DNA from: Raja brachyura
Lineage: Eukaryota
Length of the DNA stretch: 64,000 bases
Direction of reading: 5' to 3'
Assembly (NCBI GenBank): GCA_963514005.1
Contig: OY740812.1
Location: 12,772,001 to 12,836,000 of the forward strand
Part shown: piece after piece, positions 2,341-56,000 of the stretch
How positions within the stretch are numbered: the first letter of the stretch is position 1
Layout: every line of letters begins with the position of its first letter
Notes under the pieces: generated by a model
The model's database searches: none
What the model was told of the DNA's origin: nothing
The model's input: only the letters and a program-made list of their open reading frames with translations
Program-made: the position numbers and the translations under genes

Positions 2341-3588
2341 TTAAAAACAAACAAGGTAATGATTCATACATTTCATACATTTGAGGAAGACAAATATTAT
2401 CGTCAGTATGACGTAGGTACTAAGGATTATTTGCATCGCAAAGATGGACTCGGGATCGGTGAAACTTCTGTGCTTCCTCTTTGCGAGGCCAACCAACAGC
2501 TTAATCCCGGCCACCATTTGGCCTTGACGCCAACAGTAATAAGTCCCAATGTCATTCAACTGAAAGGCACGGATAACCAGATGATTACCATGATCAATGT
2601 ACAACCTCATGCTGCTGTTGACACCCATCATGTACTCCTGCCTGTAGAGCTGTCGGTGCCCCTTGTCCCAGGCTACTGCTTCCTCTGCCCTAGCCCCTGG
2701 ACAGACGAGAATCAAAGGTTGTGCAATGACTTGGAAGTGGATCTGCACTGGGACTTTGGGAGTTTTTTTGTTCTTGTCATTGGTAAAGCCAAATATGTCA
2801 AAGACGAACTTCTGCCCTTCAATGGAGTGGTCGCGTGTTGGGCAAGGCGTGAAACAGCTCCGTACCAAGATCTCCGTTTTCCTCTTCTTCAGGATGTACC
2901 GGTACCTGAGGGGGACTGCAGCAGAGCCACAGGAAACTATGTCAGGCATGGCCTTCTTGTACCTGAAATAGAGGTAAGGGCTGCGGAAGTAACACAAGCC
3001 AACGCGTCGTTGCTCCCCTCTCACCCCACATCGATCGCATTTGGTCCAATCCCAGTACAACGTAAAGATCTTGTAGGTCTTAGTCTCCACGTCCAGTTGA
3101 GGCTTCAGCTTCCCCTCTTGGAAGCTGATGTGTGCTTTTTTATAACTTTGCACGTCAATGTCATAACCATAAAAATAATCACCCTTCACAGAGCCACACA
3201 TATAATGCCCCGAATCCTTGGGTCGGGAATTAAAGACAACCAGGCTGAACATTAAGATACTGAACCGTGAACTAATTGCCGATCCAGAAGGTAATTGGGT
3301 AGTATCCAAGATCTTTGTTCCATTGAAGTCAGTCAGTACTTTTGTGTGTCCTTTGCCCAGTTTCTCCTGATAGTACCAGACAACTGATCTCACGTCCTCC
3401 GGCTTACAGAGGCATGGTAGTTCAAATGTCATATCAGCCAGATAGGCAGCATTCAGGAACATTAAGAAGGCAGGGCAGGACTGTACCTTGAATATATCCT
3501 CTTTCTCTTCAATTACAAACTCACTAGCATGAGCAGACAGAGCCCACAGAATGGGCGTAAATAAAAGGACAAAGTGTTCAGGCAACAT
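2341..3588 (-). CDS. FAM187A: Ig-like V-type domain-containing type I membrane protein FAM187A, single coding exon, 415 aa
   Basis: Long uninterrupted ORF with signal peptide (MLPEHFVLLFTPILWALSAHA), conserved CPAFLMF..AAYLADMTFELPC.CKP start, two Ig domains (C..W..DSGHYMC; C..W..DIGTYYC) and a C-terminal TM helix (IFAMQIILSTYVILTIIFVFL). It lies directly downstream of CCDC103 on the same strand, as in human. Confidence 0.93.
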   Translation of the reverse strand: MLPEHFVLLFTPILWALSAHASEFVIEEKEDIFKVQSCPAFLMFLNAAYLADMTFELPCLCKPEDVRSVVWYYQEKLGKGHTKVLTDFNGTKILDTTQLPSGSAISSRFSILMFSLVVFNSRPKDSGHYMCGSVKGDYFYGYDIDVQSYKKAHISFQEGKLKPQLDVETKTYKIFTLYWDWTKCDRCGVRGEQRRVGLCYFRSPYLYFRYKKAMPDIVSCGSAAVPLRYRYILKKRKTEILVRSCFTPCPTRDHSIEGQKFVFDIFGFTNDKNKKTPKVPVQIHFQVIAQPLILVCPGARAEEAVAWDKGHRQLYRQEYMMGVNSSMRLYIDHGNHLVIRAFQLNDIGTYYCWRQGQMVAGIKLLVGLAKRKHRSFTDPESIFAMQIILSTYVILTIIFVFLKCMKCMNHYLVCF

Positions 3589-4555
3589 TTTCTCAGGGTC
3601 TGATCAAATCTGGCCACGGACTGAAGGGCAAGCTCGTGAAGTCCACAAGAAAAGCTGTTGAGTTCTAGAAGGGACATCTTTTGGTTCTAGAACTCTGCCA
3701 TTGTGAATTAAAGAACATGCTTTGCCAGCAGGAATTCCGGAGGTGGCTCGGTGTTCACATGCCAAGGCTTATTAACACAGATCATGCATGAACAGGGATT
3801 CAGTGAACCACAGAGGTGGAATAGACAGGCATCACTCAGTGGTTATAATTCTCAGCCTAAACGTCACACTCCAGCTTAACACCGATTTCTGCCCATTTCT
3901 AATCAATGTGAGCCAGTTCTCAGATAAAGACGTTGCTCTTTACTATGTAATTCAAATAAACACTTCCACATGGCGTAGGTTGGTGTAGACACTGTGCCAG
4001 GAATGCATGGGAGGAATTATAAATTCCTTCCATGCATTCTGCCAGATTATAAATGGGAATGAAAGGAATGGGTGGAATATATATGGGGAATGGGACGTGT
4101 GGTGTTGGGGAAGGCCCGGGGTTGAGAATAACTACATCAACGCACTTGTGGAAGGCTAAACTCACTGAAGAGGTTTATATACAGATGGAAATAAAGGGAT
4201 AGTTAGGTACAGTTCCGAGTCCATGTAGGCGCGCAGTCCCTCGTCGTCCATGGGCAGTTGAGGAGGCAATGGCAGTCTTTGGCTTGTCCCGGCAGCTCAG
4301 TCTTGCTCTGAGCCTCCAAAGAGAGGTACAGTTAACAGGGAGTCCTCCTTATTTTTCCTTTCTCTCTCTTCCTCCAACTGGAACTGCCTTGGTTTTTAAA
4401 GAGTTGGGTTGACAAGGTGCAGGTGACTTGCTCCAGTCTTGGCTAATTGGACACAGTTGTTTCTTCTTTGGCTGCTGCCTCAGTTCACTGTCCAGAGCAC
4501 TATCCAGGGTGCCGGTGTTTACCAGCAGGAGACGCTGTTCATGGTGCTGGTCGTT

Positions 4556-12479: not shown

Positions 12480-12938
12480 CTAGGTAAACCTGTATGATTT
12501 CATCAATTGCTGCATTGCTGTTACATTTACTGTCTCCTCGGTAACAAATGCCTCTTGTGCAGTCCCCGCGGGACCCAGTTCTGCCTCACTTCCCTGCTGT
12601 AAAGGTACACCCAGCTTCTGTTCCAGCATCTGAAACAGCGTTTGGCCTTTCTCCCTCTCACTGCTGCTCAGGAAATCCACACTCAGGCCAAACCGTTGAG
12701 TCTGAGAAAGGTGCAGCAGAATCCAATAAATTGTTTGAGCATCTTCTGGTTGGAAATGATTAGAAAGTACGACTAGGAATTCACCAAGGAGTCCAAATCC
12801 TATTTCGGCACAGAAAATGCTTTCTAAGAGCTGGGCACCTAAGGTGACAAGGAAGGCATATTTCTCTGGTCCTGTACAGTAGTATCTTCTCCAGTCACGG
12901 CTAAACTCTGCTGAGGTCCGAGGCCGGGAATCTGTGTG
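12480..12938 (-). CDS. CCDC103: CCDC103 coding exon 3 (RPAP3-C-like domain), ends at stop
   Basis: HTDSRPRTSAEFSRDWRR...EIGFGLLGEFL...RFGLSVDFLSSSERE...LMKSYRFT*. Acceptor ctttcccaatcacag, phase 0. 143+130+459=732 nt gives 243 aa, close to the human length. Confidence 0.95.
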   Translation of the reverse strand, partial: HTDSRPRTSAEFSRDWRRYYCTGPEKYAFLVTLGAQLLESIFCAEIGFGLLGEFLVVLSNHFQPEDAQTIYWILLHLSQTQRFGLSVDFLSSSEREKGQTLFQMLEQKLGVPLQQGSEAELGPAGTAQEAFVTEETVNVTAMQQLMKSYRFT

Positions 12939-14149
12939 CTGTGATTGGGAAAGAATTAGCATGTAACTGTCTTCATTGTACAGCAAAATGAATTAAAAGA
13001 CAATGTTTTCAACCAATGTTGTTTTAATGACAGGGACAGTCAAGCCCAACCACTCAACCCCATTCTGTTGACATGGGTTTGTAACAGAAAACAAAAAGCA
13101 GAACACTCATGGAGGCGACATGCACATCATTTGTTAAATCAACCCAGCTATACTTTTGAGAATGAAGCAGTGCACTAAGGTAGTGTAAATGGAGCTCTAC
13201 CATCTCATTAGCTGAAGTTGTCTTCGGAGTAACGGGAGTGATTAACTTTAACATTGGGTATCTAAAAATCTTGCAATTATGTTAATGGATATATAAACAG
13301 TGATTATCTCAGTCACAGGAATTGAAGGGAGAAATACTCTGAGCCTAGTGATGTAGGGATTGGATGAACATTCAAACAACAACTTGATGTTAAGAAGAAT
13401 TGAGCTCTATTGCACTTGGATTTACCATCTACCTGAACTAGCATGTCCCTTGTGCTGCCCAGTAACTAGCATTTAGCAGGGATTAGAGGATTACTGAACA
13501 CTGTTGGTGGGACCTCCATTCTAGGAGACAACCCTAGCATCCCTCCCATATCAGATTTGGAGGAAGACACCGCATTGGAAACTATGGGTACATAGATTCT
13601 ATACAGGACATAGAAATTATGGGAGACTGGAGGCAGAAGAAAGAAGATTCCCATCCCGAAACGTCACCTATTCCTTTTCTCCAGAGATGCTGCCTGACCG
13701 GCTGAGTTTCTCCAACATTTAGTGTCTATCTTCGGTATAAACCAGCATCTACAGTTCCCTTCTACATAAGCTGTATTAGGAAATACTTAACAGAGAGAGT
13801 GCTCCATTCATAGCTGCTGAGAGAGGCCTAGAAATCAGTTAAGAAGCAGTTATCAGCTTTGAATGTATCACTGCATCTCAGGAATTTTGAATGTTGATGG
13901 GCTGAACAACCTTCCTCATAATTCTCTTGCACCATCTTGTGAGGAAGATCACAATGATCAAGAAATTCATAAAAAGAATATGGCTGTAATGTGATGTATT
14001 ACAGGGAAAACAAAGAGAAAGATTATCAAAAAAGAAATTTAGAAAAGGCAGTAATACTTAAAAGTTATTTATCTATTATCTAAAATGACCGTATAAGTGG
14101 CAGGACAGTTAAAACCATTTCCCATATAACATTTTTATATTGTAACTGC

Positions 14150-15045: not shown

Positions 15046-15444
15046 TACGGTATTTGTAGAAATAATGATTTGCCCTACATGTACATGCCATTATTAACAT
15101 TCCACATCAGTCTCTCCTCGCATGTGTTAACATGACTACATACTATATTTGGCCCTACTTACAGATGAACATCTAGGCACATACCCTTCATCATTAATAT
15201 TGACCTTAGTCCCAATATTTCCAGATGATCCCAGTCTCAACAGCTTTTTGTGGAAGAGTACTTGAAACTTTCATTACCCTCTACAAGAAGAATTTGTTTT
15301 TACTGTTAGTCTTGAATAATCCAGCATACATTTTAAGTTTTGCTCTCTTGTTTTGGATTTTCCCACCAGATAAATGTTATCGCTAACTTCCCTTCCAAAT
15401 CTCTTAATCATGATAAATATTTAAACTAGATTACTTATTAGATT

Positions 15445-16600
15445 ACTCCCCATGGAAGGTTGGTTAAGAAGGTTCAATCTTTGGGTGTTAATGACGGAGT
15501 AGCAAGATGGATTCAACAGTGGCTGAATGGGAGATGCCAGAGAGTAATGGTGGATGGCTGTTTGTCAGGGTGGAAGCCGGTGACCAGTGGGGTGCCTCAG
15601 GGATCTGTGTTGAGTCCACTGTTGTTTGTCATCAATGATCTAGATGATGGGGTGGAAAATTGGATAAGTAAGTATGCAGATGATACTAAGATAGGTGGTG
15701 CTGTGGATAATGAAGTAGATTTTCAAAGTCTACAGAGAGATTTGGGACATTCGGAAGAGTGGGCTGAAAGATGGCAGATGGAGTTTAATGCTGATATGTG
15801 TGAGCTGCTACATCTTGGCAGGACAAATCAAAATAGGACGTGCATGGTAAATGGTAGGGAATTGAGGAATGCTGTGGAACAGAGGGATCTAGGAATAACT
15901 GTGCATAGTTCCCTGAAGGTGGAATTGCATGTAGATAGGGTGGTAAAGAAAGCTTTTGGTGTGCTGGCCTTTATAAATCATAGCATTGAATGTAGGAGTA
16001 GGGAAGTGATGTTAAAATTGTACAAGGCATTGGTGAGACCAATTATGGAGTATTGTGTACAATTTTGGTCGCCTAATTATTGGAAGGATGTCAACAAAAT
16101 AGAGAGAGTACAGAGGAGATTTACTAGAATGTTGCCTGGGTTCCAGCAACTAAGTTACAGAGAAAGGTTGAACAAGTTAGGTCTTTATTCTTTGGAGCGC
16201 AGAAGGTTAAGGGGGGACTTGATTGAGGTCTTTAAAATGATGAAAGGGATATACAGAGTTGACGTGGATAAGCTTTTCCCATTGAGGGTAGGGAAGATTC
16301 AAACAAGAGGGCATGACATGAGAATTAAGGGATAGAAGTTTAGGGGTAACATGAGGGGGAACTTATTTACTCAGAGAGTGGTGGCTGTGTGGAATGATCT
16401 TCCAGCAGAAGTGGTGGAGGCAGGATCGATTTTAACATTTAAAAGTAAAGTGGATAGGTATATGGATGGGAAGGGAATGAAGGGGTATGGTCTGAGTGCA
16501 GGTAGATGGGACTAGGGGAAAATAAATGGTCAGCACGGACTGGAAGGGCCGAGAAGGCCTGTTTCCGTGCTGTAATTGTTATATGTTATATTATATGGTT
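15445..16600 (+). mobile_element. CR1-clade LINE, 5'-truncated, RT C-terminal half
   Basis: ORF 15460-16335 with SGVPQGSVL, SKYADDTK, ERVQRRFTRM, LYSLERRRLRGD; 3' tail ends in ttatatg repeats. Confidence 0.95.
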
Positions 16601-19544: not shown

Positions 19545-21365
19545 CTGTATAACTCTGTATTGCCCTCCATCCTATCCCCCTTTGTTAAATCCCTCCCCAC
19601 CTATGTTCAAGACACCTCAGACACTCTCCGTCGGCTCCGCGCATTCCATTCCCCAGGCCCCATCCTCTCATTTTCACCATGGACGTCCAGTCACTCTACA
19701 CCTCCATCCCCCACCAGGATGGTCTCAAAGCCCTCCGGTACTTCCTCGACCAGAGGAGCAACCCATACCCGTCCACTGACACCCTCCTCCGCCTAGCGGA
19801 GTTGGTCCTTACCCTCAATAACTTCTCTTTTGACTCCTCCCATTTCCTCCAAACACAAAGTGTAGCTATGGGCACACACATGGGCCCCAGCTACGCTTGC
19901 CTCTTTGTCGGGCACATCGAACAATCTTTGTTCTCGGTGTATCAGGGCCCCACCCCTGACCTCTACCTCCGTTACATCGACGACTGCTTTGGTGTCACCT
20001 CCTACACCCACACACAACTGACTGACTTCATCCATTTCACCACCAACTTCCATCAGGCACTCAAATGCACTTGGACCATTTCCGACATTTCCCTACCGTT
20101 CCTTGACCTCACCATCTCTATTGCAGGTGATACACTCCTGACCGACATCCACTACAAACCAACTGACTCCCACAGCTACCTGGACTACTCTTCCTCCCAC
20201 CCTGCTTCCTATAAGGACTCCATCCCCTATTCCCAATTCCTCCGTCTATGTCGCATCTGCTCCCAGGATGAGGTGTTCCACACCAGGTCATCACAAATGT
20301 GCTCATTCTTCAGAGAACGGGGATTCCCCTCCCCCACTATAGATGAGGCTCGCACCAGGGTCTCCTCCATACCCCGCAACACTGCCCTCTCTCCCCATTC
20401 CCCCACTCACAAAAAGGGCAGAGTCCCCCTGGTCCTCACCTTTCACCCCACCAGCCGGCACATACAACACATAGTCCTCCACCAGTTTCGCCACTTCCAA
20501 CGTGACCCCTCCACTCGCCACATCTTCCCATCTCCCCCCCGTCTGCCTTCTGCAAAGACCGCTCCCTCCGCAACTCCCATGTCAATTCTTCCCTTCCCTC
20601 CCGCTCCACCCCTTCCCCGGGCACTTTCCCTTGCAACCAAAAGAGATGCTGCACTTGTCCCTTCACCTCCCCCATCCACTCCTTTCAGGGACCCAAGCAG
20701 TCCTTCCAGGTCCGACAGAGGTTCACCTACACCTCCTCCAACCTCATCTACTGCATCCGTTGCTCCAGATGCCAGCTGATCTATATCGGTGAGACCAAGC
20801 GGAGGCTTGGCGATCGTTTCGCCGAACGCCTCCGCTCAGTCCGCAATAACCCACCCGACCTCCCGGTGGCTCAGCACTTCAACTCCCCCTCCCATTCCAT
20901 ATCCGACCTCTCAGTCCTGGGCCTCCTCCACGGCCAGAGTGAGCAACACCGCAAGTTGGATGAACAGCACCTCATATTCCGCTAGGGGAGTCTGCATCCT
21001 CTGGGCTTAAACATTGAATTTTCTCAATTCTGTTAACCCTGGCTGTCTCCTCCCCTTCCCACCTCTCCCTCAGCCCTCGGACCCTGGCATTCCTTCTCTC
21101 TCTATCTCTCCCCCACCCAAGTCGCACTAGCTTCTCATTTTCACACTACAAACAGCTTACAATGGCCTGTTTCCTTTATCATCGATACTTTTTTGCATAT
21201 CTTTCATTCATTGTTCTTTATCTCTCCATATCACCATCTATATCTCTCGTTTCCCTGATCCCTAACCAGTCTGAAGAAGGGTCTCGACCCGAAACGTCGC
21301 CTATCTCCTTCGCTCCTTAGATGCTGCTGCACCCACTGAGTTTCTCCAGCCTTTTGTGTACCCTG
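19545..21365 (+). mobile_element. Penelope-like retroelement, 5'-truncated: RT, GIY-YIG endonuclease and 3' pseudo-LTR, with frameshifts
   Basis: RT motifs DVQSLYTSIP, MGTHMGPSYACLF, YLRYIDD (ORF 19679-20779). In a shifted frame CNQKRCCTC...NLIYCIRCSRCQLIYIGET...HFN (GIY-YIG) ends at 21036 with a premature TAG at 20983. Lies antisense in a CCDC103 intron. Confidence 0.92.
21271..21298 (+). ncRNA. Minimal hammerhead ribozyme core in the Penelope pseudo-LTR
   Basis: CTGAAGA-A-GGGTC-TC-GACCC-GAAAC-GTC: CUGANGA box, hairpin stem II, GAAA box, loopless stem III and a GUC cleavage triplet. Stem I pairing is weak (2 bp visible). Confidence 0.6.
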
Positions 21366-21606
21366 CTGTTAATTCTTACCTGTCTATGATCTCCAGAGAT
21401 GATGCCTGACCCACTGAGTTACTCCATCACTTTGTGTCTCTTTTCTGTTAACAAGCATCTGCAATTCTTCATGTCCCCACAGGAGGCATATTACGTGTAA
21501 GGGAGTGACAGAGGTACCAAATGTCCTTCACAAAAGATGTAAACTTCACAAAATATGTGCACCTACAACATCTGAATGCAAATTTCGTTGATAGATTTAT
21601 CATTAC

Positions 21607-21749
21607 CTAAATTCTTCATATGATCCAACTTTCTGATGAATAGCCCTAAACTTGGCATCATTTTCTCGTTTATGTTTCTCATCGAGTGTCAAGGCGATTT
21701 GTAACTCCCGTTCCAGAGCCTGAAAATCAAGGGTCTCGCTTTCTTCCAT
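21607..21749 (-). CDS. CCDC103: CCDC103 (dynein axonemal assembly factor 19) coding exon 1
   Basis: Hand translation [47 protein letters not shown](R) matches the dynein-attachment N-terminal domain. Acceptor tgttttccag 11 nt before the ATG (exon starts 21760), donor AG|gtaatg; 143 nt, phase 2. Confidence 0.95.
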
Positions 21750-22304
21750 TTTTGTACCGACTGGAAAACAGAAAGATAATTAATCGTTAACGTATAGATT
21801 GCGGAGGGGATACAGATGGGAGGTGGTACAGATCAAAGATTATAGAGGAACTATAGAGGATTATAGAGGAACTATAATATTTGGTACAGATGGGAGAGTA
21901 CAGATGGGGGCAGTACAGATGTGGGGGTTGACGGTTGGACAGTTGGGTAGGCATTTCCATGGACAAGGCACAGGGACACACGGAGTTAATGCGGGCCAAT
22001 AGGGTGACTATAGATCATGGGCAACAAGGTCGGCATGGGCCGGATGGGCTGAAGTGCCCGTTTCTATGAGTACAACTGTGCGATCTAGCCTGAGGCAGTC
22101 TCTGGTTACTAGGATCCCCTCCTCTCGGCCCCATGACCCGTGCCCTCCCCCCTCACATCGGCCCGGTCAGCCAAGGTCCCTCTGTGCCCTCCGCTGGTGG
22201 TCCCGGCCCGATCAAACCGGGCTCGGCTCCACTCGGCCGACAGCAACACGGCGGGGCGGTTGGCGTTGCTGGGGCAGGGCCCCGGGCTCGGCTCGGCCGA
22301 CAGT

Positions 22305-22683
22305 AAGTAGTAACGCTGGGGGTAGTAACTCAGCATCACTGGAGATAAATCAATGGGTGACCTTCCTCTAGCTAACAATGTTGCCTTCAATGGCCCGGGT
22401 GACGTTTCGGGTCGAGACCCTTCTTCAGACTGAGTCAGGGGAGAGGGAGATACCGAGATAAGGAAGGGGAAGATGTGAAAATGAGACAAAGGCGGGGATG
22501 CGGCTCAAGGAAAATGAAAAAATAGATCATTGTTAGCTAGAAGAAGGTAACAACAAAGCACACAGATATATAAAATATAAACGAGGAGAGTCAGACTGGT
22601 CGGAGAACTGGGGAGGGATGTAGAGAGAGGGAAAGCAAGTTACTTAAAGTTGGAGAAGCCAATATTCATACCGCTGGGTGTAA
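22305..22683 (-). mobile_element. Penelope-like 3' end / pseudo-LTR fragment inserted in the promoter minisatellite
   Basis: Minus strand encodes the end of the GIY-YIG ORF (LHPAV..IGFSNFK-like), then a pyrimidine-rich UTR and the hammerhead core. Minisatellite units lie on both sides. Confidence 0.75.
22401..22428 (-). ncRNA. Second, identical minimal hammerhead core, sense to CCDC103
   Basis: The reverse complement of gacgtttcgggtcgagacccttcttcag is identical to 21271-21298. Confidence 0.6.
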
Positions 22684-23190
22684 GCGGTTGGCGTTGCTAG
22701 GGTCCGGGTTCGGCTCCACTTGGCCGGCAGTAGCTCGGGGCGGTTGGCGTTGCTGGGGTTCGGGTCCGGGTTCGGGTCCACTTGGCCGGCAGTAGCTCGG
22801 GGCGGTTGGCGTTGCTGGGGTTCGGGTTCGGGTTCGGGTTCGGGTTTGGGTTCGGCTTCACTCGGTCGGCAGTAGCTCGGGGCGGTTGGCGTTGCTGGGG
22901 TTCGGGTTCGGGTTTGGGTTCGGCTTCACTCGGTCGGCAGTAGCTCGGGGCGGTTGGCGTTGCTGGGGTTGGGGTTCGGGTTCGGGTTTGGGTTCGGCTT
23001 CACTCGGTCGGCAGTAGCTCGGGGCGGTTGGCGTTGCTGGGGTTGGGGTTCGGGTTCGGGTTTGGGTTCGGCTTCACTCGGTCGGCAGTAGCTCGGGGCG
23101 GTTGGCGTTGCTGGGGTTGGGGTTCGGGTTCGGGTTTGGGTTCGGCTTCACTCGGCCGGCAGTAGCTCGGGGCGGTTGGCGTTGCTAAGG
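22684..23190. repeat. GC-rich compound minisatellite, 7 full units plus a partial one
   Basis: gcggttggcgttgct recurs at 22684, 22740, 22802, 22882, 22950, 23024, 23098, 23172 (periods 56, 62, 80, 68, 74, 74, 74). Lengths differ by the number of GGGTT(C/T/G) hexamers. A diverged copy sits at 22256. Confidence 0.97.
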
Positions 23191-23225
23191 GCCGGGCCCC
23201 GCCCCCTTGCCAGGCCGCGCGCGTC

Positions 23226-23239
23226 GTTGCCTTGACAAT
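23226..23239. promoter_or_regulatory. RFX X-box-like element
   Basis: GTTGCCTTGACAAT matches GTTGCCATGGCAAC at 11 of 14 positions, upstream of a motile-cilia gene. Confidence 0.55.
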
Positions 23240-23559
23240 GGGCCTGCTGCCACGTGACACAGCCCGGCGGCGGCCTACGCTGAGCATGCCAGAGAGGAGG
23301 GGCTTGATAGGCCGCGGCCCGTGGCCTGGGCTCCGGCTGCGGAGTGGGCACCGAGCCCCTTGTTTGCCTGTAGATAGCCTGGCGTGTGAGTGGAGTGGTC
23401 TGCCGCCGCTGACGCGACTCAGGCACCAGAGGCAAGTAAGGCTGCATCTCTCCGTTGTTAGCTGCCCTATGGCGGTCGCAGTCGGTCCCTGCCGCTGGGC
23501 CTGCCCTTGCCTCCTCCACCACTCTCTGTGGATCAGATCCTGGCAACCTCTTTGTAAAT

Positions 23560-25345
23560 CCTCTCTCCACTCTTTCCAGCTTAACAAAATCTGTCCTATA
23601 ACAGGGCTATAACTGAAAACAATGCCAAATGTGGCCACACTGATGTCTTGTACAGCTGCAACAAAACATCCTAACTTCTGCACTCAATATCCTGACTGAT
23701 GAAGGCCATTGTGCCAAAGGCTTTCTTGACCACTGTGATACCACCTTCAAGGAACTATGTACCTGCACTCACAGATCTCTGGTGAACAACACTTTCCAAA
23801 GCCCTGTCATTTACTATGAAATTCTTGCCATGGTTTGACCTCCCAAAATACACCACCTCGTACGTATCTGTATTAAACTCCATTAACCACTCTTGCTCAA
23901 CTGATCAAAATCCTGTTGTAACTTTTTGATGAACATCTTTTCTTTTTGCGATACCACCCACTTTAGTGTCATCTGCAAACTTACTAATCATGCCTTCTAT
24001 ATTCTCGTCCAAATCGCTGATATAAAGCACAACAGCAGTGGGCCCAGCACCGATCCCTGAGGCATACCTCTTAGTCAAAGGCCAAAAAATATTTTTTGAG
24101 CAATACTCACTAATTCCATCCATGAAGCCAATTTTTTATCCAGTCAACTAGCTCTCCCTGGATCCCATGCGAGTGGCTTGAGGTTGGCCACTAGATTTTA
24201 CAGCATGGAAGCAGGGCCATGCTCACAGTACAAAGTGCTGCAGTTTCTCAGTTGGTTGGACATAGAAACATAGAAAATAGGTGCAGGAGTAGGCCATTCG
24301 GCCCTTCGAGACTGCACCGCCATTCAATATGATCATGGCTGATCATCCAACTCAGTATCCTGTACCTGCCTTCTCTCCATACCCCCTGATCCCTTTAGCC
24401 ACAAGGGCCACATCTAATTCCCTCTTAAATATAGCCAATGAACTGGCCTCAACTACCTTCCGTGTCAGAGAATTCCAGAGACTCACCATTCTCTGTGTGA
24501 AAAATGTTTTCCTCATCTCGGTCCTAAAGGAATTCCCCCTTATCCTTAGACTGTGACCCCTTGTTCTGGACCTCCCCAACATCGGGAACAATCTTCCTGC
24601 ATCTAGCATATCCAACCCCTTAGGAATTTTGTAAGTTTCTATAAGATCCCCCCCTCAGTCTTTGAAAAATTATCACTAATGCATCCATTATTTCTGTGGC
24701 TACTTCCTTGAGTACTCTGGGATGCAGACTATCTGGCCCTGGGGATTTATCGGCCTTCAATCCATTCAGTTTTACTCAACACCACTTCTCGGCTAACCTA
24801 GATTTCACTCAGTTCCTCCACCTTATTTGACCCCCGGTCCCCTGCTATTTCCGGCAGATTATTTATGTCTTCCTTAGTGAAGACAGAACCAAAGTAGTTA
24901 TTCAATTGGTCTGCCATGTCCTTGTTCCCCATGATCAATTCACCTGTTTCTCAAGGAACCTACATTTGTTTTAACTAATCTCTTTCTCTTCACATATCTA
25001 TAAAAATGTTTGCAGTCAGTTTTTATGTTCCCTGCCAGTTTTCTTTCATAATCTATTTTCCTTTTCCTAATTAAGCCCTTTGTCCTCCTCTGCTGGACTC
25101 TGAATTTCTCCCAGTCCTCTGGTTGGCTGCTTTTTCTGGCTAATTTGTATGCTTCATCTTTTGTTTTTATACTATCCCTGAATTCCCTTGTTATCCATGG
25201 ATGCACTACCTTCCCTGATTTATTCTTTTGCCAAACTGGGATGAACAATTGTTGTAGTTCATCCATGCAGTCTTCCATTGCACATCCACTGTCAACCCTT
25301 TAAGAATCACTTGCCAGTCTATCTTGGCCAATTCATGTCTCATTC
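23560..25345 (-). mobile_element. Cluster of CR1 LINE fragments (about 23560-24172 and 24262-25345)
   Basis: ISKFADDTKVGG (ORF 23905-24123), RTRGHSLRIRG..FFTQRMV (24352-24615), PWITRE..IKTK..YVKRKR (24940-25278). Confidence 0.88.
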
Positions 25346-25874
25346 CCTTCACAGACGACATCTGTGAAGGGAATGCATATCCAAAACACCTTCCAATTTA
25401 CAGCACGGAAGCAGGCCTTTCACCCATGCTCAAAGCATAGAGTGCTGCAGTTACTAAATTGGTCAGTCAGCATTTGCGAAGGGAATGGATATCCAAAAGT
25501 CTGTCCATTCCATTCACGGATGCTGCCTGGCCTGCTGAGTCAAACTTCAGCACTTTGTGTATTGTTCAAGATTCCCGCATCTGCAGTTCTGTATGTCTTC
25601 CTTGTGAAGAATGCTAGGACAATCTTTATTTGTTTTTTCTAGATCCAGGCTCTGACTTCTGAAATTTCGCCATTTTGCCTCCAGTTTGTTCAGTGTATGC
25701 ATGTTATGTTTATAAATGGAAAATAGCAATCCGAGTCTCTACAGCATTTTCTATTATCATTCTGTGTAGGGAGACTAGATCCTCAATCATGATCAAACTA
25801 AAATTTTAGATCAACTTGGTATAACCCAATGCACTTAACATTAAAACTGATTGTGTGCACTTGACACTTGACAA

Positions 25875-26200
25875 GGATGGCATGGTGGCGCAGTGGTAGA
25901 TTTGATGCTTTACAGCGCCAAAGACCCAGGTTTTATCAGATTCTATTCTGACTACAGGTGCTGTCTGTATGAAATTTGTATGGTCTCACCGTGACCTGTG
26001 TGGGTTTTCTCTGGGTGCTCCGGTTTCCTCCCACACCCCAAAGGCGTACAGGTTTGTCTGTTGATTGGCTTGGTATAAATGTAAAATTATCTCTAGTGTG
26101 TGTAGGATGGTGTTAGTTTGTGGGATCGCTGGTTGGTGCAGATTCGGTGGGCCGAAGGACCAGTTTTCGCGCTGTATCTCCAAACTAAACTAAATTAAAC
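25875..26200 (+). mobile_element. HE1-type tRNA-derived V-SINE
   Basis: A-box tggcgcagtgg, central gggtgctccggtttcctcccaca domain, (ctaaa)n tail. Confidence 0.85.
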
Positions 26201-26586
26201 TTGGTTTAATGTTTATGTAGTTCCCTGTCTTTTGCAATTCTATATATATCAAATTCATTCAATTAACCTCTATAGATATATATAAAAAAAGAGAGCAGTC
26301 GATGTTTCAGGTCGGTGTTTTCATCTGGACTGGTGACTTACTGAAGCTGTCTGAGTTCCTCCAGCAGCTCCCCTTTTTTTGCTCCAGATCTGCAGTCTGT
26401 TGATAATAATCCTTCAATTATTAAGTGTATTCTTTGTCTACTTTGATTACTTGGTATAGTTAACCAGGCTTGACCTTATCTTTTGAAAGCAATTCTGATT
26501 AATCTTAATAATATTCTTGGTTTCCAGATGTCTTTCTGTTACATCCATATAAGTAAAGATTCCAATATCTTTCCAACCTGTAAGAT

Positions 26587-27201
26587 ATGTTGATGCTTTG
26601 CAAAGCCTTTCAAAATTTTTGCTGTGGAAATTGCATGGAAGGTAATACAGAAGGTACAAAACAGAGGAAAAAGAGGCAGAATGATAGTAACAAAGAAATC
26701 CACTTCAGAAAAAGATCCTCAGAGCGGATCGGTGAGAACTTAAGAAAAAGAACAGATAAAGCAAAAGATGCAAGACACCAAAAGGGGAATTCTTCTCCAA
26801 CACTAGGAAGGAGATCAAACAGACAGCACAGCAAAGAAAATATGAATGTTAAAGGCATTATGTCACGTGGAGGCAGAGTAAGCAGACAGCAGAGCAGGGA
26901 GAGTATAAATATTAGAAATAGTCATCGATCACGTTGGGGCCGAGGAAGCCGATCCCGCAGCAGAGAGTATGTTGGGGACAAAAGATATTCTAAAGATAAC
27001 AAAAGAAAAATAAGCAAACAACCCAGTCGAGAGAGCTTGAACGTCAGAAAAAAATCTGCAGGTAAAAGAGGTAGAGTAAGCAGACAGTCCAGCAGAGAAT
27101 CGTTATATGACGGAAGATACACTGGAGCACACAAAAGAAGTAGAACCAGCCTGCCTGGCAGAGAGAAACCGAGGGGTCCAAGAAAACACATTAACAGCTA
27201 G
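26587..27201 (+). CDS. Uncharacterised intronless basic Arg/Lys/Ser-rich repeat protein, 204 aa (putative)
   Basis: ORF in non-transposon sequence with an in-frame stop just upstream of the ATG, candidate acceptor ttcttggtttccag at 26527, six about 22-aa repeats (GRVSRQxSRES-like), and AATAAA signals at 27739-27748. Confidence 0.6.
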   Translation: MLMLCKAFQNFCCGNCMEGNTEGTKQRKKRQNDSNKEIHFRKRSSERIGENLRKRTDKAKDARHQKGNSSPTLGRRSNRQHSKENMNVKGIMSRGGRVSRQQSRESINIRNSHRSRWGRGSRSRSREYVGDKRYSKDNKRKISKQPSRESLNVRKKSAGKRGRVSRQSSRESLYDGRYTGAHKRSRTSLPGREKPRGPRKHINS

Positions 27202-27738
27202 AAAGAATACAAGCATGCAATTCAGCAAAGAAAAGATTAATGCTAAGAAAATGACTTGCACAGGGGATGCAAGCAGACAGCACAGTGTAAAGTGAGTAAG
27301 AAGAAAGTCATTACAGTGGACTGCGTGTTTGAGCAGGTGGCATGGCAGCGAGACTTAGAAAGAAGGAGATGTCTCGGCAGCCACAGAGGGCAAACTACAG
27401 AGGAAACTGAAATTATGGAGAAAAGGCACCGCACCAAGAGGAAAAGAGAGGCAAACAGCCCCACAAAGAGAGATTGAGCAGGAGCCCAGTTCAGGTGAAC
27501 TGGAGGAGAGGAAACTAATGTAACGCAAGGATAGGATCATCATTTTGCGCACTTAGAATTAAACTACTGGAACCTGGAATCCACAAGAGAAACACCTGCA
27601 GAAAGAAAAAAATTAAAATGACAATGTGTGCAAGTTAAAATGTTAAATTAATAACCATGGTTTGTTTTGTGTTGCTATCAGAATTTTTTAACATTTGGGT
27701 TGAGGTGTTCGCTCATGCTTGTTCACCTTACACCTGTA

Positions 27739-27748
27739 AATAAATAAA
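27739..27748 (+). terminator. Overlapping AATAAA polyadenylation signals for the 204-aa ORF transcript
   Basis: aataaataaa about 540 nt after the stop at 27201. Confidence 0.45.
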
Positions 27749-51700: not shown

Positions 51701-52019
51701 GAAACATGTGGGTGAATGAGGCTAATGGGGTCACTGAGCCTTGGACTCCAGGGCACATCCTGTGCCAAGAAAATATAAGGTTGCATTTTATCCGGCAGTT
51801 GGAGGGTCCCTGGAGATCCAATGACATTCCTGGAGAAATTGGTAATCCTGGCCCTAATCACCAGGTAAACCCACTTGCAGAAAGGGCCATCAAAATCAAT
51901 GGGGGTGAGCAGTGCTTTAAAAAGGTAGGGTATCTAAGGAGCACATCCGTAACCCGCGTCTAAGAAAGGGAACTGGTTCTTTCTCAGGGGCGATGAAGAT
52001 AGAGTTGACAGCAGGCAGC

Positions 52020-53060
52020 GACTGAAAGGAATTGGATGGGTTTGAGCCAATCAACAGCCACATCCTGCTGACAGGCGCTTGTTTGTGCCGGGGGCTGACA
52101 CACGGGTAGAGAGGCTGCAACTCGGCGACTGAGGAGCTACTCGGCTATAAGCTCAAGCTAGCGGCCGCCTGCAACCCGAGGACACTCATGGTGAGTGCAT
52201 GCCCCCCACAGCCCGCGGCAGCGCCCGATGCACAGGGCGGGGGAAGAAGGGTCCGGGCACACATTGCATTTGCATTCCCCAAGTGCAATGAATCGGAGCC
52301 GGCTGGAGAGGGAGAGGGCGAGGGACCGCCCGGCGCCTGGGTGCATGCACACAGCACAGCCGCACAATGAGGCTCGGGTCCATTGTTCAGCCCGGCTCCC
52401 TCAAACACTCGCCGACATGTCTGCGGCGCATTCCCCCTCGCATCGCCCGGCCCTCGCTCTGGAGGAGACGGTCCCTCAGCCTTGCCACTGATGCTGGGAG
52501 CCGGCACTCTGCCAGCGGGCAGCTGCACACTCGCTCTCCCTCCCTGCTCCCTCCCTACCGGCGCAGTGACCGGCTCCACGGCGGGGAAGCGGAGCGACCT
52601 CCCATCGGCGGCGGCGGCAGCCCACGCTTCCCTCGCCCGGCTACACTGCACTCGCCCGGCCGCCGGCACCCAATCCGCTGATGTTGCGGTTCCCCGGTGT
52701 GGGAGTCAGTGACCGCCCCAGCCCCAGCCCCAGCCCCAGTAACTGGGTGGGTGGCAGCGCCCGGTACCAACGTGGGAGAATGTCCCTCCAGCATCACTCA
52801 CACCGAGCGGCAGAGGGGGACGCCCAGCATCGCCGGGGGCTGTGTTGCTGGTGTGAGCATGGGGCTCTCCCCCTGATCACTCAGTGGATCTTTGTGAGTG
52901 TACACAGTACGTAAACGTACTGCCCGTTCTTCACTCGGCGCTTCTCCTCTCGGGCTGTTGCTGCGGCTGTTTCTCAACCATTGCTAAAGCGGCTGTGTGG
53001 GCAGCAGTCAGTCGTAAAGGGGACCCACATGCGGTGGTGTTCTCCGCCATCACTGTGTGC
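52020..53060 (+). promoter_or_regulatory. CpG island: promoter and first exon(s) of an unidentified + strand gene
   Basis: High GC and CpG. ATTGG 52031, CCAAT 52047-52051, TATAA 52146-52150, then ATG|gtgagt at 52188-52196 (consensus donor). Confidence 0.7.
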
Positions 53061-56000
53061 TGCCTGGCGGCCTACTGTTGCCCTGTAATGTGACGACTCC
53101 CTCATCCACTGTCCCCACAACTGGACACATATGGCTTAATCCCCGCCGCAAATCCGATGTATGGCGTCGTGATCTCCCGCCACGCCGAGCTTGGACAGGA
53201 ATGTGTTTGCATGTGGGTGTATGTTTGTAGCAGCGTGGCGTGCATGTATGTGCATGCATCCATGTGGTTGTGCACAGTGCACAAGTGAGTAGAGTGTACA
53301 GGTGAATATGCAAAGTTTGTTGATAGCATACGCATGCATGTACGCGATCACATCTTAAACATTGTGCTGATACATGCCACATGCCTGTGCTTGTACTTGG
53401 CGTGTGTTGGCAATGTAGGCATAATAATCACATTTCTCATGTATCCGAAAGTGATTTGTAGCCAAATTGTTGCAGAAACGGGGCAATTAATTTGCACATC
53501 ACGTCCATAACAGCATGTGAACATGACCAGTCTTTTACTTCATTTGAGGGAAGTGGGTATTACTGGCGAGGGCAGTATGTATGCATGTATTACCCATTGA
53601 TGATTACCCTGAGAAGGTGCTGGTGAGCTGCCTTGACCTGAGGTAATCCGCATGATGCAGTTACATAATAATGTGTTTGGATAGTGAGTCCCAGGAATTA
53701 TATGCAATGATGATAAAATACTGTGATCCTGAAGGGGAACTGCAGATGAGGGTGTTCCTCCCTATTTGATTTTAGAGGGTGAGTCCCTCAAGCAGTTTTA
53801 GAGGGTGCTGTTAAATACATTTTGATGAGTAAATGCAGTGCATGTTATAGAAAGTACGCATTTCCGCTACGGTATACCGGGGGCGAGGAGGTGAAAGTGT
53901 ACAGGGGTGAATAGAATGACAATCAAGCTGGATGCCTTGACTTTGAATGCCTTATTTTGTTGATAGTCGTCCAGACATGTGGAAAGTATTCCATCATACT
54001 CCTTGTGCTTTGTAGATGATGGAATATGTGTCTGGAGTAGTTGAGTCTATGGTCAGTGAAGACCTCCAGGATGTTGAGAGTGGGATATTCTGCAATGATA
54101 ACGACATTCATTGTTGGGGTTAGATTCACCCTTGCTGGAGATGGTCAATGTCTGGAACTGTTTGTAGCACAAAGATTCCTTGCCACCTATCAGCCCATTG
54201 CTGAATATGTCTAAGCCTTGAGACATGCTGGTGTGAACTGCTTCATTTGCTGAGTAGTTGTTAATGAAATTGACGTCCTTCAAACTTTTTCTGACTTTGT
54301 GATGGAATGAACGTCAATGATAAAGCTGATGCTGACCACTCTCTTGTTCAAGAGGGTGCCTGAGATGTTTTATATCTGTTTAGAAAAACAGACAAGGCTT
54401 TGGGTTGCATGTAGATTTTTGTGTTCAATAATCTGCTGTAAGCAGCAAATGTTGACTCCAGGCTTGGATGCTACAATCTGAGCTATGACCAGCACAGCAT
54501 GTGTAAATAAAATGGAGACACAAGAGACTGTAGATGCTGGAATCAGGAGCCAAAAAACAGGCTGCTGGAGGAACCCAGTGAGTTGAGCAGCATCTGTGGA
54601 GGATGGGTAGGAAGAATTGTTGACTGCATCTTGACAGAGAGTGTGAAGGTAAAGATGGCCGGTCTAAAGAGATAGGTGGAGTTGTGAGACGGGCCTGTGG
54701 GCGATAGATGGACTGGGGGGGGGGGGAGGGGTGAAGGATGATGGGCAGAAGGAGCTACATGATGGAGGCAAATACTTGACAGGTCAGGCAGCATCTGTGC
54801 AAAGGGAAACTGAATACATGTTTCAGATTGATGACCTTTCAAAAGAACAAGGTCTTTCATTAAAACTGTGTCTCAACACAAATTAATCTCTTTCAAAATG
54901 GTCTGCCTTTTTAAGTGTGCAGAACTCATCTTAAAAGCCATTGCACAATGCAGAAAGCATATGAAACAAGTATATTTTTGCACTGTATGTACTGAATTTT
55001 GTCCATTGGTGAGGCAATACTTCCTTAGTATTGTTATATTAGAAAGTATAAAACAGAAACGAGTTGCAAGTGGTGGATTATCCTGCAGAGATGAGTGTGA
55101 TTTTTCGGAGATTCTGCTGCCATGAAGAACATTATATCATTACTATACTACAGAGGGGAGTGTGGTTTGTATGGTGGGCGATGTGGCATGGTGTAGAAGC
55201 ACATTGTACGGTGAGCAGAATCATTTTTATGTGTCACAATCATCACAGTCTATGTGCTCTCAATTCACTGATTGTATATCAGCAAGGCGCACTCTGTTAC
55301 TATTTGTTTTTTATCAGCTATTGCTAGTGTAGGTGGGTGGGGGATGAACTGGGGTGGGGGGGGAGACGTTGATGGGTATGCAAGAGATAATAAGGTGCTT
55401 GGGAATGTAAATACAGGACTGTAACTCCAGGTGGGCTCCAAGAACCAGCATAGACTTGATGGGTTGAATGGTCTCCTTCTGTATTGTGTGAAAATGTGAG
55501 AATGAGAATTGATACTGTTCTGACTAATCCAGTAACTGAAGGTGACGTAGGAGAGAGATGTTCTCTCTGCCCCTGGTTTCAGTTTGGGGTTTTGAACGTA
55601 TTGTACATAATACAGTTGAACAACCATTGAAGTAACCTCCAATCCCATTGCATCTTCTTTATTGTGACCATTTTAGGGCAATGTAGGATTCTAGATCCTT
55701 GAGCAGCTGCCAGTCATTGTGTCCCAGAGCAGAGACTCACGAGGGGTGCAGGGTTTAAGTTATTATGAAGTTCTCTCCTGAGACAGTTGTTATCAAACAG
55801 CCCGCTCTCTCATGATGTCCATGTCACAGTGTAAGTGGAAATAGCATGCACCACATACTCAACACTCACGGCAGATGGTGGCTCTTGTAAAGGATGTGTA
55901 ACCAACCACCTATATGCCTGGATCTCAGAGCAATGTGCCGCAAGCTTGAGATAAAAAAAAGCAGTGCCTTTAGGGAAATGGTGCAAGCCGTTGGTGTGCG

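Follow-up and report, generated by a model that had tools for sequence, protein, structure and literature searches.

A spliced, apparently unannotated gene with a basic repeat ORF lies head-to-head with CCDC103 in the skate Raja brachyura

The window, that is, the whole stretch of 64,000 nucleotides of Raja brachyura DNA analysed here, carries CCDC103 and FAM187A on the minus strand and, on the plus strand, a transcribed and spliced gene of two exons whose second exon holds an open reading frame (ORF) of 204 codons (Table 1). The basic-repeat gene and CCDC103 are arranged head-to-head on opposite strands, as judged from the CCDC103 coding exons, which bears out the divergent orientation proposed in an earlier sequence-only reading of this DNA. 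A CpG island at about 22250-23500 separates the two genes, with CpG o/e of 0.83-1.12 in windows starting at 22251-23001. The island is filled between both genes by a GC-rich tandem array of units of about 60-75 bases (22610-23201), which may lie within the 5' UTR or promoter of CCDC103, and a partial copy of the array is found at 22217-22305. Co-regulation by RFX had also been proposed, but the one X-box-like site in question is at chance level, being one of six sites in the window with no more than three mismatches to the consensus. Retroelement fragments abound in the window, and reverse-transcriptase-like long frames were recognised by eye in a CCDC103 intron (15442-16335 and 19589-20985, both on the plus strand). 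For a right-hand neighbour, 136 minus-strand frames from 27775 to 52983 gave one sub-cutoff Pfam match (PLATZ, E 0.007). A second GC-rich island is located at 52000-53300, with no Pfam match in its minus-strand frames.

The gene order around CCDC103 departs in several ways from the human order. In humans the divergent partner of CCDC103 is EFTUD2. Here the two genes are 14.3 Mb apart, although their orientation is still divergent, and EFTUD2 has a CpG-rich exon of its own. An NMT gene is present on the promoter side of CCDC103, and no HIG1-family match was found on the contig bearing CCDC103. An origin of the basic-repeat gene on a promoter abandoned by EFTUD2 was considered and rejected, EFTUD2 being that far away and having only repeats in common with the region. 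A second NMT-family gene, seen as two closely spaced exon matches, is located at G000:C2:29718739-29719056. In two turtle entries (P0020 and P0021), a FAM187A domain and a Dynein_attach_N domain are joined in a read-through form.

Table 1. Positions of the features discussed in the text, numbered from the first letter of the window except for the two loci in the last row.
Feature	Position	Strand	Remarks
FAM187A	2344-3603	-	Intact single exon, downstream of CCDC103
CCDC103 coding exon (RPAP3_C)	12483-12992	-	Domain match
CCDC103 first coding exon (Dynein_attach_N)	21606-21749	-	Domain match
X-box-like site	23226-23239	.	3 mismatches to consensus; not above chance
Non-coding exon 1 in CpG island	23330-23431	+	Putative 5' end, from 100-letter loose end; 23400-23429 matched
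GC-AG intron in 5' UTR	23432-26527	+	3096 bases; junction in one X7 contig
Upstream ORF	26528-26593	+	21 codons; first ATG of putative spliced contig; stop overlaps Met3 codon
Main ORF	26587-27201	+	204 aa, 23.7 kDa, pI 11.6, net charge about +42, predicted disordered
N-terminal 16 residues	26587-26634	+	Hydrophobic, weakly amphipathic, four Cys; in-frame Met17 next
Six in-frame repeat units	26800-27192	+	63-66 bases each, core type S-R-Q-x-S-R-E-S
Decayed continuation of repeat array in 3' UTR	27194-27523	+	Stops in all three frames
Two overlapping AATAAA, candidate signals	27739-27748 (at 27739, 27743)	+	X7 contig ends before, at 27679
EFTUD2 and NMT loci	G000:C34:27069864-27072207 and 13134953-13138807		

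The evidence for splicing comes from one contig of one sequencing run, X7, and such contigs carry no information on expression level. This contig of 1254 letters corresponds to 26526-27679 with one difference and has a loose 5' end of 100 letters, the last 30 of which are identical to 23400-23429. Its sole canonical reading is that exon 1 ends at 23431 and exon 2 starts at 26528; the junction rests on the loose end because no contig alignment spans exons 1 and 2 together. The intron has a good GC donor (GAG/GCAAGT) and an acceptor formed by a pyrimidine tract ending in CAG. The two-exon gene and the acceptor at 26527 of the sequence-only reading are thus those of the X7 contig, which joins the CpG-island exon to 26528, whereas the GT donors that it had named at 23386 and 23436 are replaced by the GC donor at 23432. 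The exon 1 stretch contains no ATG. The short upstream ORF overlapping the main start was found as described, and Met17, with G at +4, is another possible start. AATAAA is indeed present at 27739, and again at 27743, but the contig stops short of a transcript end there. Among the matching sequencing runs listed for the region, none is catalogued as RNA. The X7 contig is in all likelihood RNA, because X7 covers no flanking DNA in the stretch examined, save a short match on a 40-base repeat, and the genome has no intronless copy. Runs X1, X2 and X4 seem to be DNA from a relative, sequenced at low depth, because X1 and X4 extend beyond AATAAA and none of the three is spliced.

The encoded protein contains 17.6% Arg, 11.3% Lys and 13.7% Ser; Arg and Lys together reach 28.9%, and the earlier counts of about 29% Arg+Lys and 14% Ser in a 204-aa ORF were reproduced. 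Acidic residues make up 8.3%, no Arg run exceeds two, and several basic clusters are present. The AlphaFold model showed a mean pLDDT of 45.5 and a pTM of 0.10, with no folded domain and no N-terminal helix (pLDDT below 50 there), and the protein is predicted to be disordered. The Cys-clustered N-terminus that had been pointed out consists of Cys 5, 12, 13 and 16, all four of which are kept in the orthologue described below, and a basic cluster follows C-terminal to this hydrophobic segment. Residues 3-13 are weakly amphipathic in the skate protein and in the orthologue alike, a weak and window-dependent signal (hydrophobic moment p 0.01-0.02 against shuffles for residues 3-13, p 0.05-0.23 for other windows). 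The exon was also simulated with Markov models, 1000 times at first order and 1000 times at second order, and none of these simulations produced an ORF of 204 aa. Searches of the 2.7 Gb assembly found one copy by protein and one by exon DNA, as expected of the unique sequence described earlier.

The six repeats of 21-22 residues announced by the sequence-only reading were recovered as six cores beginning at residues 78, 99, 121, 143, 165 and 187, spaced by 21, 22, 22, 22 and 22 residues, each containing Glu. Self-similarity reached z 5.4 at lag 22 and z 7.2 at lag 44, whereas the best lag in 300 shuffles had a 99th-percentile z of 3.8 and a maximum of 5.5. A basic residue stands three places before Ser in five of the six cores (Ser 82, 103, 125, 147 and 169), and several cores have an additional Ser at +3 or -4, giving S-x-x-S and S-x-x-x-S spacings, a layout that would suit primed multi-site phosphorylation. 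The whole protein has 17 RS or SR dipeptides, nine R-x-x-S/T sites, one short RS run and one Ser-Pro.

The homology search yielded an orthologue cluster of nine proteins (P0001-P0009), assembled from 42 Logan contigs, which are 79-81% identical to the skate protein, colinear with it and share its stop; full-length members also share the start of the 204-aa ORF, and the orthologue is equal in length. P0001 was the sole match of a profile search against 1.84 billion representatives. A near-length protein search gave one match among 623 candidates, and a search of longer proteins gave none among 7965 scored, which is weak evidence. Pfam returned 0 families at E up to 10 and PDB sequences 0 matches; the ESM Atlas gave no usable match for the query or P0001 (recognition 991 and 1032), which indicates neither absence nor novelty. 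No family had been recognised from the letters either, and this view stands, the only match among the representatives being an unassigned orthologue. The neighbour FAM187A has annotated proteins in three skates, in several rays and sharks and in a chimaera. Skate protein annotations probably lack the basic-repeat gene, because no cluster member has an NCBI or UniRef entry while FAM187A has entries in the three skates; a similar annotation gap or fast divergence, and not true absence, may explain why no ray or shark protein matches. In the literature searched, which has few of the older subscription papers on elasmobranch sperm proteins, no published description of it was found. As far as these sequence searches go, the gene is so far restricted to skates, apparently unannotated and of no recognisable family. 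The longest contigs of five of the nine cluster members measure 1344-1475 bases, where the predicted mRNA has 1339 or more, and those of three measure 2273-2276 bases, where the distance between the flanking repeats is 2366. We infer from these lengths that both RNA and DNA runs feed the cluster, and the mRNA-sized contigs may point to wide rather than testis-only expression.

The repeat array does not end at the stop codon. A profile of the six units detected extra units in frame +1 at 27194 and 27254, with scores of 11.1 and 0.9, both above the best score of 200 shuffles (-1.3), and weaker repeat-like units were seen at 27314 and 27432 (E 0.21). The base make-up is repeat-like over 27202-27523 (purine 0.69, T 0.14) and changes further 3' to 0.55 and 0.30. 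This part of the 3' UTR contains four, three and six stops per frame in about 107 codons, as compared to none in the 204 codons of the main ORF; it serves as an internal control, in which like sequence decayed after the stop and stayed open before it. These decayed units had been missed by the sequence-only reading and add to its account. Because the array continues, decayed and out of frame, past the stop, the ancestral protein was likely longer, with an ORF of perhaps about 310 codons, and the shortening likely took place before the lineages of Raja brachyura and P0001 split. The decayed extension with its repeat units therefore points to an older coding gene and makes it less likely that the gene arose de novo very recently.

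Conservation of the frame was assessed with P0004, which differs from the skate protein at 40 of 204 residues with no indel and with the same start and stop, whereas 95% of 600 neutral simulations to the same distance met a stop codon. The changes were milder than neutral (P 0.018) and fell on 5 of 48 core positions against 19 of 69 linker positions (Fisher P 0.019; simulation P 0.045). Net charge (P 0.61), basic residues (P 0.16) and serines (P 0.12) were not conserved above neutral, and two of the five simulated conservation statistics were below 0.05. In the N-terminal 16 residues two positions differ in the orthologue, not clearly fewer than elsewhere. In organism A, a second relative whose DNA is about 94% identical, most of the ORF is represented by three contigs, none of which shows a gap. 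Among the 40 differences listed for it (19 more lie beyond these), 27 fall within the ORF, 21 of them non-synonymous and six synonymous, and on these differences the pN/pS of about 0.88 is indistinguishable from neutrality (binomial P 0.81). Divergence of the ORF and the UTR in organism A, 18/326 against 19/570, was not significantly different (P 0.12). The 612 open bases, with no stop or indel, are found both in Raja brachyura and in the P0001 species; if breaks were as dense as they are in the 3' part, the chance of such an open run would be roughly 0.02 to 0.0004. P0001, for its part, owes its detection to being an open ORF, which is an ascertainment effect. FAM187A is 95.2% identical to that of Amblyraja radiata, 94.9% to Leucoraja erinacea and 88.7% to Rhinoraja longicauda; in the alignments with two rays and one shark the identity is 75-78%, and with the chimaera it is 63%. 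As compared to the 89-95% for the three named skates, the orthologue identity of 80% suggests that the basic-repeat gene evolves fast, the comparison being indirect since the species pairs may differ. The frame appears to be kept while the residues change fast, a pattern of many reproductive proteins, and slow decay would also be compatible with these data. On the whole, we regard the ORF as quite probably a protein-coding gene that is being maintained.

Our tentative first choice for its function, put forward at less than even confidence, is a fast-evolving basic nuclear protein of spermatids. The gene would be expressed in germ cells and the ORF translated, the protein would be nuclear and would bind DNA through its net charge in the manner of transition proteins or protamines, phosphorylation of the repeated R-x-x-S cores would tune this binding, and the protein would help package the DNA of developing sperm. 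The reading is supported by the pI of 11.6, the basic clusters, the protamine-like mass and Arg/Lys richness, and the fast evolution; basic proteins that evolve fast and are confined to one lineage often turn out to be sperm proteins. It is weakened because Arg at 17.6%, Arg runs of at most two, 8.3% acidic residues and a Glu in each core are unlike protamines. It is also weakened by the mRNA-sized contigs, by a charge not better kept than neutral and by the CpG-island promoter and the upstream ORF, both atypical of protamine genes.

The comparison with known families limits this reading to an analogy. P-type protamines are described as highly Arg-rich proteins of 3-10 kDa and protamine-like (PL) proteins as Arg/Lys-rich proteins of a broad range, 6-40 kDa (PMC11607694). 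At 23.7 kDa, with 17.6% Arg and a longest Arg run of two, the skate protein is not of the P type. It does share with PL sperm nuclear basic proteins the combination of Arg and Lys, a mass within their range and a variable structure (PMC11607694), a loose resemblance in size and composition, but it is 8% acidic and has no histone H1 winged-helix domain, as no Pfam family, PDB match or folded domain was found. Nor did Pfam or the 1.84 billion representatives give a sequence match to TP1 or TP2. TNP2 has a Cys-bearing N-terminus ahead of a basic body. Like the skate protein, the mammalian TNP1 and TNP2 are basic and rich in Arg, Lys and Ser, and TNP2 is described as poorly conserved across species; they are small, with about 19% Lys and 21% Arg (PMC9258737), as compared to 11% and 18% in the skate protein, which has 204 residues, regular 22-residue repeats and no Pfam match. 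The term transition/protamine-like used in the sequence-only reading therefore holds only as an analogy, because the tests of membership in the protamines and in TP1/TP2 failed, and by that analogy the protein may work like a transition protein. Among basic proteins of cartilaginous fish, some with Cys, the dogfish spermatid intermediate proteins S1/S2 and the keratinous protamines have fewer than 100 residues and are far richer in Arg than the longer skate protein, and nothing of either name was among the homology-search matches. The high-molecular-weight basic nuclear proteins of winter flounder and mammalian SRRM5 are likewise repeat-built, Arg/Ser-rich testis proteins controlled by phosphorylation. 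Their repeats are rich in Ser-Pro, however, whereas the skate protein has a single Ser-Pro and no sequence match to them.

Not far behind comes a second possibility, itself rather doubtful, in which the protein would serve cilia or the sperm tail as a polybasic scaffold anchored to a membrane. In such a protein the N-terminal Cys would be S-acylated, the basic repeats would attach to acidic lipids or to the tails of tubulin until phosphorylation released them, and starts at Met1/Met3 or at Met17 would give anchored or soluble forms. The retention of the four Cys and the hydrophobic N-terminus in the orthologue, the shared amphipathic stretch with a basic cluster next to it, the G at +4 of Met17, and the position opposite CCDC103, which is described as carrying a dynein attachment domain (PMC5974087), are all consistent with it. 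The arrangement known from S-acylated polybasic proteins, Cys in a hydrophobic or amphipathic N-terminus ahead of a basic stretch, is accordingly found here, but the amphipathic signal is weak and depends on the window (p 0.01-0.23), AlphaFold gives no helix there, two changes in the 16 residues are not clearly below the rest, and the X-box is at chance level.

It is somewhat less likely that the CCDC103 promoter gives rise to a non-coding RNA in the divergent direction, bearing decaying remains of an older and longer repeat-protein gene, in which case the 204 codons would be what is preserved up to the first break in the frame and would have lost their importance. The pN/pS of about 0.9 among the organism A differences listed, the decay of the 3' third of the array, the upstream ORF ahead of the main start and the lack of a protein entry in NCBI/UniRef would fit this, as would the GC-AG intron, a type described as enriched among first introns and long non-coding genes (PMC7242645). 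Lineage-specific divergent transcripts are reported to be common (PMC3583895), and the skate gene resembles those of that report in being lineage-restricted and in having its start in a CpG island that lies upstream of an old gene read from the opposite strand; theirs have low coding potential, whereas the skate gene has a long kept ORF and traces of a longer ancestor. Against decay are the 612 open bases in two species and the gap-free organism A contigs beside several breaks in the 3' part, the improbability of that run at the 3' break density, and the slower change of the cores relative to the linkers.

A widely expressed, disordered Arg/Ser-rich protein of the nucleus or nucleolus is unlikely. 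It would act in RNA binding or condensates under the control of kinases, like RS-region proteins that have no RNA recognition motif, and the RS/SR dipeptides, R-x-x-S/T sites and core serine spacings, the CpG-island promoter and the many mRNA-sized orthologue contigs would accord with it. The protein is not an SR splicing protein, as Pfam found no RNA recognition motif or other domain and there is one short RS run, and the lack of matches outside one cluster is unlike housekeeping RS proteins, which are usually conserved across vertebrates. More speculative still, and in our view improbable, the gene could represent an undescribed spermatid class of cartilaginous fish, in which the upstream ORF would select either a long form anchored through its Cys or a short, soluble form of a phospho-switched basic repeat array, so that a single gene would both tether chromatin to a membrane and condense it. 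The gene would occupy the promoter slot opposite CCDC103 that EFTUD2 holds in humans, and would have been cut in skates from at least nine units to six. A transposon ORF1 or chance ORF is very improbable despite the retroelement fragments in the window, since protein and exon DNA each match one place in 2.7 Gb, which, barring copies missing from the assembly, rules out a multicopy transposon ORF, the gene is spliced, and 0 of 2000 simulations yielded such an ORF. The sequence-only reading had itself listed the lack of any transcript, an ORF not preserved in relatives and a match to a multicopy transposon ORF1 as grounds for giving it up; instead, a spliced contig, an orthologue 80% identical with its frame intact and a single genomic copy were found.

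By itself the gene opens no long-standing question. Either way it is a real spliced gene, kept in relatives, for which the annotated skate proteins searched contain no entry, and it offers a clear case of C-terminal truncation in which the lost repeats can still be read in the 3' UTR. If it does encode a spermatid chromatin protein, it would add an independent case of a basic protein that is built from repeats and carries phosphosites at regular intervals, and would provide a molecular handle on the little-studied replacement of histones in skates.
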